From assembly GCF_003334315.1 (NCBI RefSeq), contig NZ_QOWR01000068.1: a stretch of 20,473 bases of DNA. The stretch is one strand, 5' to 3'. This DNA comes from Escherichia coli. GTDB taxonomy: Bacteria > Pseudomonadota > Gammaproteobacteria > Enterobacterales > Enterobacteriaceae. Both the position numbers and the translations under genes were made by a program. The notes under the pieces were generated by a model. The model was not told where the DNA came from. It saw only the letters and a list, made by a program, of their open reading frames with translations, and did no database searches. Within the stretch, counting starts at the first letter, position 1. The number at the start of each line of letters is the position of its first letter. Below are positions 2,114 through 8,242 of the stretch, one piece after another.

Positions 2114-3349
2114 ACTTGTTGTGGAACCAATATCCAGGTCGCAGGATATCGCTATTCTACGCAAGGTTTTTATAACTTATCCGACAGTGCATACAGTCGA
2201 ATGAGTGGTTACACCGTCAAGCCTCCTACCGGAGACAGCAATGAGCAGACACAATTTATTGATTATTTTAATCTGTTCTACAGTAAGCGTGGTCAGGAAC
2301 AAATAAGCATCTCTCAGCAGCTTGGAAATTACGGTACGACATTTTTCAGTGCCAGTCGCCAAAGTTACTGGAACACGTCACGCAGCGACCAGCAAATATC
2401 ATTTGGATTAAATGTGCCGTTTGGTGATATTACGACTTCGCTGAATTACAGCTATTCCAATAATATATGGCAAAACGATCGGGATCATTTACTCGCTTTT
2501 ACGCTTAATGTTCCCTTTAGTCATTGGATGCGTACAGACAGTCAGTCGGCATTTCGTAATTCAAATGCCAGTTACAGTATGTCAAACGATTTGAAAGGCG
2601 GCATGACCAATCTATCGGGGGTTTATGGCACTCTGCTGCCGGATAATAACCTGAATTATAGCGTTCAGGTCGGTAACACCCAAGGGGGTAATACATCGTC
2701 TGGCACCAGTGGTTACAGTTCTCTTAATTATCGTGGAGCTTACGGTAATACGAATGTCGGTTACAGTCGGAGTGGTGACAGCAGCCAGATTTATTACGGA
2801 ATGAGTGGTGGGGTTATTGCTCATGCTGATGGCATCACCTTTGGACAGCCGCTGGGCGACACAATGGTTCTGGTTAAGGCTCCTGGCGCTGATAATGTCA
2901 AAATAGAGAACCAGACCGGAATTCATACCGACTGGCGTGGCTATGCAATATTACCATTTGCGACAGAATATAGAGAAAATCGTGTCGCTCTTAACGCGAA
3001 TTCCCTTGCAGATAATGTTGAACTGGATGAAACCGTAGTCACTGTCATCCCAACTCACGGTGCTATTGCCAGAGCAACATTTAATGCACAAATCGGCGGG
3101 AAAGTATTAATGACGTTGAAGTACGGTAATAAAAGCGTTCCATTCGGTGCAATTGTCACACACGGAGAGAATAAAAATGGCAGCATTGTCGCGGAAAACG
3201 GTCAGGTTTATCTGACTGGACTTCCACAGTCAGGGAAATTACAGGTTTCATGGGGCAAAGATAAAAACTCAAACTGTATTGTCGAGTACAAGCTTCCTGA
3301 AGTTTCTCCTGGTACCTTACTGAACCAGCAGACAGCAATCTGTCGCTAA
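2114..3349 (+). pseudogene. ydeT: fimbrial usher (FimD-like), C-terminal ~410 codons only; 5-prime truncated
   Basis: Frame is open from the stop at 2111-2113 and FimD-like homology starts immediately (GYRYSTQGFYNLSDSAYSRMSGY... through ...LLNQQTAICR). No N-terminal plug or barrel start, no signal peptide. The track ORF begins at an internal ATG (2201). Confidence 0.85.
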
Positions 3350-5382: not shown

Positions 5383-5454
5383 TTGTGATTTTGACCTTAG
5401 TCTATGCGCTCCATTCACGAAAATTGCGCGGATAATTATTTTGTGAAGGCTATT

Positions 5455-5472
5455 AGCCTACACCTGTAAGAA
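5455..5472 (+). promoter_or_regulatory. EvgA-box-like dyad upstream of ydeP
   Basis: AGCCTACA-CC-TGTAAGAA against the 18-bp EvgA consensus TTCYTACA-N2-TGTARGAA as I recall it (right half perfect, left half 6/8). Confidence 0.6.
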
Positions 5473-5564
5473 AATCCGCGCACAATTGAAGCCAGAGTCT
5501 TATTTTTTATATTGAAAAATATGTTAATTTAAACACTATGAGAGATGATGCTTAACTTATCGTA

Positions 5565-5596
5565 TTTAATCTATTGTTTAACGATAATAGATTAAA
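5565..5596 (+). promoter_or_regulatory. perfect 11-bp inverted repeat with 10-bp spacer (candidate operator) upstream of ydeP
   Basis: TTTAATCTATT-gtttaacgat-AATAGATTAAA, about 120 bp upstream of the ydeP ATG. Confidence 0.35.
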
Positions 5597-5715
5597 AATA
5601 GAAAGAGAGTAGTCCCCTACTCTTATATATCCATGTTGGCGATAATCCCTTTGTATGTACTGTGCATCATCGCTATTACAAATCCTAATAATTCATTTCC
5701 ACACAGGATAAGTAG

Positions 5716-7995
5716 ATGAAGAAAAAAATTGAATCCTACCAGGGTGCTGCAGGTGGTTGGGGTGCTGTTAAATCCGTAGCGAATGCAGTACGTAAGCAGA
5801 TGGATATACGCCAGGATGTTATTGCCATGTTTGACATGAATAAGCCAGAGGGCTTTGACTGTCCGGGTTGTGCATGGCCAGATCCTAAGCACAGTGCGTC
5901 ATTCGACATTTGTGAAAACGGCGCAAAAGCAATCGCCTGGGAAGTCACGGATAAGCAGGTAAACGCCTCTTTCTTTGCTGAGAATACGGTTCAATCATTA
6001 CTTACCTGGGGAGACCACGAGCTTGAGGCTGCGGGGCGACTCACTCAGCCTTTGAAATATGATGCCGTCAGCGACTGTTACAAGCCATTAAGCTGGCAAC
6101 AAGCTTTCGACGAAATTGGCGCACGCCTTCAAAGCTATAGTGATCCCAATCAGGTTGAATTCTATACTTCGGGCCGCACTTCCAATGAAGCTGCCTTTCT
6201 TTATCAGCTTTTTGCCCGTGAATACGGGAGCAATAACTTTCCCGACTGCTCCAACATGTGCCATGAACCGACAAGCGTGGGTTTGGCAGCGAGTATCGGT
6301 GTAGGTAAAGGGACCGTGTTGCTGGAAGACTTTGAGAAGTGCGATTTAGTCATTTGCATTGGGCATAACCCTGGTACAAACCACCCTCGCATGCTGACTT
6401 CGTTGCGCGCTTTAGTGAAACGGGGAGCGAAAATGATCGCCATCAATCCTCTACAGGAACGTGGCCTGGAGCGATTTACCGCACCGCAAAACCCGTTTGA
6501 AATGCTGACGAACTCTGAGACTCAGTTGGCCAGTGCCTACTATAACGTGCGCATTGGTGGCGATATGGCGTTGCTCAAGGGGATGATGCGCCTGTTAATT
6601 GAGCGCGATGATGCTGCAAGCGCCGCAGGTCGGCCTTCATTGCTTGATGACGAGTTTATTCAAACGCATACCGTCGGCTTTGACGAGCTACGCCGTGACG
6701 TTCTCAATTCCGAGTGGAAAGATATCGAACGTATTTCTGGACTAAGTCAGACACAAATCGCCGAACTGGCTGACGCATATGCCGCTGCCGAACGCACCAT
6801 TATCTGTTACGGAATGGGGATCACTCAGCACGAACATGGTACCCAGAACGTACAGCAACTGGTCAATCTGCTGTTGATGAAAGGTAACATTGGCAAGCCT
6901 GGTGCGGGTATCTGCCCACTACGTGGACACTCTAATGTACAGGGCGACCGAACCGTCGGTATCACCGAGAAACCGTCTGCAGAGTTTCTGGCTCGTCTGG
7001 GTGAGCGCTATGGCTTCACCCCACCTCATGCACCTGGACATGCTGCAATTGCCAGCATGCAAGCAATATGTACGGGGCAGGCTCGAGCATTGATCTGCAT
7101 GGGGGGCAATTTTGCGCTGGCAATGCCAGATCGGGAAGCGAGCGCTGTACCGTTAACGCAATTAGATTTGGCGGTACACGTAGCCACTAAGCTTAACCGC
7201 TCTCATCTGTTGACCGCACGGCATAGCTATATTCTGCCGGTCCTGGGACGTAGCGAGATTGACATGCAAAAAAACGGTGCGCAGGCGGTAACCGTTGAGG
7301 ATTCAATGTCGATGATTCATGCCTCGCGTGGCGTGTTAAAACCCGCCGGTGTAATGCTGAAATCAGAGTGTGCAGTGGTCGCGGGAATCGCGCAGGCAGC
7401 ACTACCCCAGAGCGTGGTAGCCTGGGAGTATCTGGTGGAAGATTATGATCGCATTCGCAATGACATTGAAGCTGTGCTGCCAGAGTTCGCCGACTATAAC
7501 CAGCGCATCCGTCATCCCGGTGGTTTTCACCTGATAAATGCAGCTGCTGAAAGGCGCTGGATGACGCCGTCAGGTAAGGCTAATTTCATTACCAGCAAAG
7601 GGCTGTTAGAAGATCCCTCTTCAGCGTTTAACAGTAAGCTGGTCATGGCGACAGTACGCAGCCACGATCAGTACAACACGACGATTTATGGTATGGATGA
7701 TCGCTATCGAGGGGTATTCGGTCAACGAGATGTGGTCTTTATGAGTGCTAAACAAGCTAAAATTTGCCGTGTAAAAAACGGCGAAAGAGTTAATCTTATT
7801 GCGCTTACGCCAGACGGTAAGCGCAGCTCACGCCGCATGGATAGATTAAAAGTGGTCATTTACCCTATGGCTGACCGCTCACTGGTGACCTATTTTCCAG
7901 AATCGAATCACATGCTAACACTTGATAACCACGATCCATTAAGTGGCATTCCTGGCTATAAAAGTATTCCGGTTGAATTAGAACCATCAAATTAA
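5716..7995 (+). CDS. ydeP: molybdopterin oxidoreductase, formate-dehydrogenase-like; acid-resistance protein, 759 aa
   Basis: Recognised sequence ([25 protein letters not shown]...); N-terminal Cys cluster CPGCAWPD; AGGA upstream. Confidence 0.9.
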
Positions 7996-8010
7996 TGCCT
8001 CTTCTCATTT

Positions 8011-8037
8011 CTTCTGCTGTCATCCGCACAGCAGAAG
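8011..8037 (+). terminator. stem-loop after ydeP (10-bp perfect stem, no U-tract)
   Basis: CTTCTGCTGT-catccgc-ACAGCAGAAG, 16 bp after the ydeP stop. Confidence 0.4.
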
Positions 8038-8113
8038 AATTCCTCATTGACTATTATTTCGCAATTTGCTCACATGGATTAAATTAAACTACATACTATA
8101 AGATATAAACTTC

Positions 8114-8131
8114 TGCCTACAGCTGTAAGAA
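8114..8131 (+). promoter_or_regulatory. EvgA-box-like dyad upstream of safA-ydeO
   Basis: TGCCTACA-GC-TGTAAGAA; same architecture as the ydeP site. Confidence 0.6.
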
Positions 8132-8242
8132 ACTCCGCTCAGTACTGAAGCACCAGTCCTATTTCCTCTTTTCTCCAGCCTGTTATATTAAGCATACTGA
8201 TTAACGATTTTTAACGTTATCCGCTAAATAAACATATTTGAA

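Follow-up and report, generated by a model that had tools for sequence, protein, structure and literature searches.

The perfect 11-bp dyad in front of ydeP has, in our assessment, about an even chance of being the DNA image of a structural stem-loop that the sense strand forms in the 5′ leader of the ydeP mRNA. An activator site is excluded, and a sequence-specific protein operator is improbable. The changes observed between lineages tend to keep the pairing and not the sequence of the half-sites, as is expected of a nucleic-acid hairpin and not of a protein operator.

The dyad and its surroundings

The window, i.e. the whole analysed stretch of 20,473 nucleotides, represents an E. coli K-12-type locus with the gene order ydeT′-ydeS-ydeR-ydeQ followed by ydeP-safA-ydeO-ydeN-ydeM. 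Among the main outputs of the EvgS/EvgA acid-resistance cascade is ydeP, which widely serves as its reporter. Discussions of how ydeP is regulated are usually limited to EvgA and H-NS. The 333-bp spacer between ydeQ and ydeP (5383-5715) was found in 5,328 of 5,426 complete E. coli genomes and is 100% identical in many E. coli chromosomes. The following features are needed at this point:

5565-5575, plus strand: left arm of the perfect dyad, TTTAATCTATT
5586-5596, plus strand: right arm of the perfect dyad, AATAGATTAAA
5716-7995, plus strand: ydeP coding sequence, 759 amino acids, with the Shine-Dalgarno sequence AGGA at 5705-5708

The perfect 11-bp inverted repeat that a sequence-only reading had reported at 5565-5596 was verified with its exact arms, spacing and coordinates, and so was its location between the EvgA box (5455-5472) and the ydeP ATG (5716). 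The two 11-nt arms are 100% complementary and enclose the 10-nt spacer GTTTAACGAT. In MG1655 (NC_000913.3) the equivalent stretch is found on the complementary strand at 1,586,606-1,586,637 (window position x converts to 1,592,202 - x). Outward extension of the dyad in the DNA is blocked by A5564 facing A5597. Inward, a G.T and then a T-A follow and nothing more, which as RNA gives a stem of 13-14 bp.

Also the statement that the dyad is long even for AT-rich DNA holds. When the 333-bp spacer was shuffled with its dinucleotides preserved, 0.4% of the shuffles contained a perfect inverted repeat with arms of 11 bp or more and no more than 20 nt between them; for its 18%-GC core the share was 0.35%. 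In the 20-kb window three perfect repeats of at least 11 bp were observed compared to 0.11 expected. By extrapolation, a few dozen chance dyads of such size would be found per genome, so that the ydeP dyad is locally unusual but not extraordinary. The second repeat of this kind, TAAATAACATG-N14-CATGTTATTTA, lies at 2028-2063 upstream of the ydeT remnant, and the third, TTCTTCTGCTGT-N7-ACAGCAGAAGAA, at 8009-8039, 14 nt past the ydeP stop codon, where it is probably the stem of the ydeP terminator. An origin as repetitive or mobile element (REP/BIME, ERIC, MITE or IS end) is not supported, with a median of one place per genome for both a 333-nt and an 86-nt query.

Several peculiarities of the locus were noted in passing. 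In K-12-type genomes ydeT, an F9 fimbrial usher gene (window 2201-3349 and upstream), is annotated as a 5′-truncated pseudogene, and the remnant of a frameshifted HTH gene is annotated between hipA and ydeT. In strain Z503 an IS1 is located just upstream of the equivalent of 5627 (~5626); promoter, dyad and ydeQ are gone. The metagenome contig L103 carries unrelated DNA upstream of ~5500 and hence has no EvgA box. A contig of a ‘Candidatus Nanosynbacter’ metagenome-assembled genome (JARKOR010000108.1) contains the ydeP locus with a YdeP 100% identical to that of the window, which is almost certainly a contamination of this bin by E. coli.

Promoter and transcription start

Upstream of the dyad, the following elements were assigned:

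5455-5472, plus strand: EvgA box AGCCTACA-CC-TGTAAGAA, its right half matching 8/8 positions of what we take to be the EvgA consensus
5486-5513, plus strand: alternative sigma-70 promoter-like site TTGAAG-16-TATATT with an implied start at ~5520, from a promoter scan and an RpoD-SELEX listing
5521-5538, plus strand: probable EvgA-dependent core promoter, with the extended -10 element TGTTAATTT at 5521-5529 and A5538 as the start of the published leader RNA

In most lineages position 5456 of the EvgA box is T, and the match of the left half is thereby improved. The box is flanked by a 9-bp G+C-rich perfect inverted repeat, TGCGCGGAT (5425-5433) and ATCCGCGCA (5474-5482), with a spacer of 40 nt; in divergent Escherichia loci its right arm reads ATTCGCGCA, a change of the G.U type on the plus strand. 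The sequence TGTTAATTTA at 5521-5530 overlaps the probable -10 element and resembles what we take to be the ArcA half-site, WGTTAATTAW. Since ydeP encodes a putative oxidoreductase of the anaerobic type, this likeness may be relevant.

According to literature, EvgA acts directly on ydeP. A 2024 study in J Bacteriol used an in vitro ‘ydeP 5′ leader’ RNA that extends from -178 to +10, counted from the ATG. The T7 primer, GGG-ATGAGAGATGATGCTTAACTTATCG (first letters ATGAGAGATGATGC), sets the start of this RNA at window position 5538. TTGAAG-16-TATATT, the only consensus-type sigma-70 site, is listed for ydeP in a genomic SELEX study of RpoD.

Additional evidence for the start comes from safA. The region upstream of ydeP (5454-5558) is paralogous to that upstream of safA (8113-8217), and the two align without any indel from the EvgA box through TGAAGC and the -10 region to TGTTAATTTAAACA in ydeP and TGTTATATTAAGCA in safA. 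At the place of TGTTAATTT (5521-5529) in ydeP, safA has the good extended -10 element TGTTATATT. This homology places the extended -10 element of ydeP at 5521-5529 (to 5530), in accordance with a start at about 5537/5538. The similarity stops at ~5558, just 5′ of the dyad, indicating that the long structured leader is peculiar to ydeP.

Judging from this secondary source for the start and from the promoter homology, the dyad is transcribed and occupies +28 to +59 (start at 5538) or +45 to +76 (start at ~5520). On the same basis, the leader is ~178 nt long and contains the dyad, downstream of every plausible start. The sequence-only reading had regarded the location as typical of a repressor or second activator. 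The latter is contradicted: at +28 to +59, past all plausible starts, an activator site is excluded. For a repressor the promoter-type location is likewise lost, and repression would be possible only as a roadblock downstream of the start.

Predicted fold of the leader

Folding of the leader as sense RNA predicts two hairpins inside a closing helix:

5541-5551, plus strand: 5′ strand of helix P1 (hairpins A and B lie within this helix), AG.GAUGAUGC, invariant in 18/18 leader haplotypes
5565-5596, plus strand: predicted RNA stem-loop A, 5565-5578 paired with 5583-5596, loop UAAC at 5579-5582, dG -11.4 kcal/mol, z = -5.1
5605-5624, plus strand: predicted RNA stem-loop B, GAGAGUAG-UCCC-CUACUCUU, dG -9.4 kcal/mol, kept in all haplotypes
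5664-5674, plus strand: 3′ strand of helix P1, GCAUCAUC.CU, paired with 5541-5551

The stem of hairpin A, which corresponds to the dyad, comprises 14 bp, namely 11 Watson-Crick pairs followed by G.U, U-A and U.G; hairpin B begins nine nt 3′ of the dyad. With -11.4 kcal/mol, hairpin A is favoured in the sense RNA compared to -7.0 kcal/mol in the antisense RNA, and as single-stranded DNA it reaches -6.4 and -6.0 kcal/mol on the two strands. The whole leader (5538-5730) has a minimum free energy of -40.5 kcal/mol (z = -3.85), and none of 200 shuffles was equally stable. Thus both the hairpin and the leader pass the composition-matched folding control.

In the context of the full leader, hairpin A shows pair probabilities of 0.82-1.00 in 16 of 18 haplotypes, with values of 0.30 and 0.68 in two rare ones, while P1 reaches at least 0.89 and hairpin B 0.72-0.99. 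The K-12 fold has an extra helix, P2, formed by 5557-5563 and 5639-5645. Position 5639 is polymorphic (G/A), and its pairing with U5563, G.U or A-U, occurs in this fold only. CGATAA hexamers occur in the leader at 5558-5563 (minus strand), 5582-5587 and 5641-5646, and two of them form P2 in the K-12 fold. An Rfam scan of 5383-5800 with E values up to 10 returned chance snoRNA-like matches alone (E = 5.9-8.3), far under the gathering scores.

A coding function of the leader was rejected. The mini-ORFs starting at ATG5538 (MRDDA*) and at ATG5545 (16 codons, through the hairpin) have no usable Shine-Dalgarno spacing and shift in length or frame in other haplotypes (13 codons, 7 codons).

Variation among Escherichia lineages

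In a scan with one genome per species, ydeP with the present leader was confined to Escherichia. Among close relatives outside E. coli-like records, only Edwardsiella (~85% amino acid identity) and Yersinia rohdei (67%) were found, and their upstream DNA is unrelated to the E. coli leader. This precludes a deep comparison, and the diversity within the genus was used instead. The set of 100 Escherichia loci is non-random, as some genomes were picked for divergence. It was drawn from seven complete genomes across the identity range, the divergent Escherichia record L010 with a 96% identical YdeP, and 90 metagenome stretches retrieved by a pattern anchored in the conserved flanks. In these 100 loci, 15 haplotypes were distinguished for the hairpin region and 22 for the leader. 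The forms of the hairpin are as follows:

K-12-type arms, 50/100 loci: perfect 11 bp
TACTCTATTAT-TTAACG-ATAATAGAGTA (N6 spacer), 28/100 loci: a different perfect 11-bp stem in another register
8-bp core only, TCTATTAT/ATAATAGA with imperfect outer pairs, 11/100 loci
A-to-T variant, 8/100 loci: uncompensated internal U.U mismatch
cryptic-clade loci, 2/100: outer stem bulged, core including a U.G pair
L114-type, 1/100 loci: 11 bp including one U.G

The second haplotype, TACTCTATTAT/ATAATAGAGTA, differs from K-12 by the exchange of one A-T for C-G and by an A-T in place of the G.T of K-12. In the set of 5,426 complete E. coli genomes, the 86-nt K-12 stretch is matched with at least 99% identity by 2,567 records and the second haplotype, at the same threshold, by 1,011. 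The perfect 11-bp dyad of the K-12 type is therefore lineage-specific, and what is universal is the 8-bp core TCTATTRT/ATAATAGA. The outer 3-5 bp of each arm vary, including a 5-bp indel, while the inner 8 bp are kept in 100/100 loci. Poor conservation, which the sequence-only reading had named as an argument against a regulatory site at the dyad, thus applies to the hypervariable outer arms and not to the core. With 9 of 16 variable columns the outer arms are at the top of the leader, compared to 59/195 overall and 0/22 in P1. Nevertheless, a hairpin is predicted at the dyad position in 18/18 leader haplotypes, with sense-strand energies of -5.7 to -12.1 kcal/mol. In the cryptic-clade loci P1 is three pairs longer (UUA/UAA) and the segment 5625-5663 is heavily diverged.

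The consensus structure predicted by RNAalifold contains P1, hairpin B and the core of hairpin A. Counted over the haplotypes, 160/162 cells of the hairpin A core are paired in the sense RNA in comparison to 133/162 in the antisense RNA; for hairpin B the values are 144/144 and 125/144. All of the six or seven transitions in the stems convert A-U to G.U, a change that is tolerated solely in the sense RNA. A rough binomial estimate, with random direction and events assumed to be independent, gives p of about 0.02 for this one-way wobble pattern. At the ninth pair from the loop (alignment columns 37/60), K-12 has A-T where the second major haplotype has C-G. Starting from the ancestral state, taken as the 8-bp form because it is shared with the outgroup, random changes of equal number and kind yielded a hairpin as stable as that of the second haplotype in 0.08% of the trials and one as stable as that of K-12 in 0.3%. 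Two-sided covariation was not found within the nine-pair core of these close relatives from one genus, for which the shuffle control was uninformative. Two further points speak against a stem-loop of functional importance: the region of hairpin A shows no sequence constraint, with hypervariable outer arms, and A-U stems arise easily in A/T-rich DNA.

Alternative readings

The same variation could also result from mutation alone. In E. coli, quasi-palindromes are known to be corrected by template switching, a mutational route to a perfect repeat that requires no selection. The dyad could accordingly be a neutral quasi-palindrome in AT-rich, horizontally acquired DNA that was perfected by intra-strand template switching, with an RNA hairpin that may form but stays idle; we consider this the main rival, possible if unlikely. 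Within the leader, polymorphism peaks in the dyad region, the local GC content is 18% and the single-stranded DNA hairpin is stable on either strand. Moreover, the clustered changes in the left arm (CATTCT to TAATCT and CATTCT to TACTCT) are all directed towards the reverse complement of the right arm, and likewise the K-12 left arm, with a 5-nt deletion plus T to A, has moved towards the right-arm complement, a pattern typical of template-switch mutation. However, template switching predicts perfect complementarity of the DNA, whereas the commonest haplotype retains its G.T, and the C-G pair of the second haplotype requires a change in both arms. One-sided changes in the core are all wobble-compatible, specifically in the sense strand. 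Furthermore, even the divergent cryptic-clade loci retain the 8-bp core, hairpin B and P1, despite the heavy divergence of the adjoining segment 5625-5663.

Low GC content is also in line with binding of H-NS. The dyad would then be part of a nucleation or bridging site 3′ of the promoter, comparable to the downstream regulatory element of proU, and would help to silence ydeP until EvgA counteracts; its symmetry would be incidental. We assign a small probability to this explanation. The stretch 5500-5599, with 18% GC, is the regional minimum, and the three CGATAA motifs resemble the core of TCGATAAATT, the high-affinity motif of H-NS, with matches at 6-8 of 10 positions. In published competitive gel shifts H-NS prefers the ydeP promoter fragment, and the ydeP-ydeQ spacer is marked ‘HNS’ in a published genomic SELEX table. 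The dyad may well lie within H-NS-bound DNA. On the other hand, the published H-NS-bound fragment is not mapped to 5565-5596, H-NS needs no dyad, and pair-preserving substitutions are not favoured by this protein. Since H-NS binding to the DNA is compatible with a stem-loop in the RNA, the two are not exclusive.

Still slimmer is the chance of an operator, to which a dimeric DNA-binding protein would bind at +28 to +59 and serve as roadblock or repressor. To our knowledge, the dyad resembles no consensus of an E. coli regulator. A perfect palindrome with a fixed axis would suit an operator, and so would the inner half-sites TCTATTRT/ATAATAGA that are common to all lineages; operators downstream of start sites do exist, as for gal OI and for PurR at purB. 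According to the literature, too, protein binding near ydeP is possible, as induction of DicC raises ydeP 20- to 47-fold and ydeP is discussed among the ‘binding target genes’ of DicC. In contrast, the sequence of the outer arms and the length of the perfect repeat vary by lineage, with symmetric positions changing together, and the symmetry of the DNA is broken by G.T in the commonest haplotype. The half-site is also not enriched in the window: five matches with at most one mismatch were found compared to 2.5 expected, and 14 of 100 shuffles were as good. Two particular proteins were tried and rejected. The DicC motif TT[ACT]G...C[GAT]AA is absent from the dyad, and the paper on the YdeO regulon makes no mention of ydeP. 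No report of a factor binding at the dyad was found in the literature.

A terminator or attenuator that includes the dyad, whether for attenuation in the ydeP leader or for an antisense transcript that ends at hairpin B on the minus strand, is hardly credible: on the minus strand hairpin B does score as an intrinsic terminator (7 pairs, 3 G-C, tail CTTTCTATTT), is the only site of this kind in 5383-6300 and takes part of its T-rich tail from the right arm of the dyad, but a scan of 5383-6300 revealed no antisense promoter-like site, the searchable part of one 3′-end mapping supplement contains no ydeP 3′ ends, and hairpin A, with one G-C pair, is rejected as terminator due to the lack of a U-tract on either strand, the letters next to the stem being AAAAAUAG (plus) and AUACGA (minus).

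Proposed role of the leader stem-loop

Returning to a structural stem-loop in the ydeP leader, we infer that hairpin A forms in vivo and has an effect on the fate of the mRNA. In the very AU-rich leader, P1 together with hairpins A and B would give the first ~140 nt the shape of a compact domain. In this domain the hairpin could act as a passive structural element that keeps AU-rich leader RNA double-stranded while the 5′ end is tied down. Attack by RNase E and loading of Rho on the long untranslated leader might thereby be limited, and transcripts started by EvgA could then reach and express ydeP. Published literature on ydeP in connection with UTR, Hfq, Rho or hairpin contained nothing that concerns the dyad element, and processing of the ydeP mRNA was likewise not found in the searchable part of the 3′-end data set.

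A more active function is conceivable. The ~140 nt of P1 around A and B could constitute an Escherichia-specific cis-regulatory RNA domain that gates stability or translation of the ydeP mRNA as a second layer of control beneath EvgA, which we regard as improbable. Candidate signals may be pH, Mg2+, temperature, an sRNA or an RNA-binding protein. For CsrA, the 2024 J Bacteriol study observed no binding to the ydeP leader RNA. For Shigella, an effect of RyhB on ydeP was published with its mechanism unexplained, and this effect could run through the ydeP leader. No pairing of RyhB at the hairpin was found. The best duplex between RyhB and the leader region starts at 5739, in the early coding sequence, and its -20.3 kcal/mol lies within the range of the shuffles (mean -16.0, minimum -22.6), hence this pairing was rejected.

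Another observation concerns MazF. ydeP is listed with the value 13 in a published table of the MazF regulon. On our reading, this value denotes an ACA cleavage site 13 nt 5′ of the AUG, in CACACAGG (5700-5705) just before the Shine-Dalgarno sequence. If MazF cuts there, the whole structured leader would be removed.

For experimental work on ydeP, two points bear on the interpretation of reporter fusions (transcriptional against translational) and of strain differences: the leader is long and strongly folded, and its main hairpin comes in different versions in K-12-type and other lineages. A search for a ‘second activator’ at the dyad is unnecessary; the element otherwise looks like an ordinary leader stem-loop.

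Comparison with known systems

In terms of DNA-level control, the ydeP dyad shares with the downstream regulatory elements through which H-NS acts at proU and bgl the extreme AT-richness, the place just 3′ of a promoter and the H-NS-repressed, horizontally acquired gene. Unlike the dyad, those sites are not defined by dyad symmetry. gal OI, the PurR site at purB and lac O2 are operators downstream of a start site and have in common with the dyad a palindrome 3′ of the start of the regulated gene. Their half-sites are conserved in sequence and the protein is identified, whereas the ydeP arms vary in a pair-preserving manner and have no known protein.

Similar to thyA, the E. coli hotspot for template switching at a quasi-palindrome, the ydeP leader shows an imperfect inverted repeat with clustered changes in one arm that restore complementarity. 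Hotspots of the thyA type reflect a mutational process and not a function, and they leave the sense-strand wobble pattern unexplained.

Among structured leaders, the pH-responsive leader (PRE) of alx and the cis-regulatory leaders in Rfam are related to the ydeP leader by a structured leader in front of a pH-regulated E. coli gene. In contrast to them, the ydeP leader has no Rfam match and no alternative-structure switch is evident. The hairpins of the ompA leader are the classic stabilising stem-loops of enterobacterial 5′ UTRs. As in ompA, a ligand-free hairpin in a long untranslated leader 5′ of the ribosome binding site would limit access of RNase E. The protective hairpin of ompA is located at the extreme 5′ end, whereas that of ydeP starts from +28, with the 5′ end tied by the separate helix P1.
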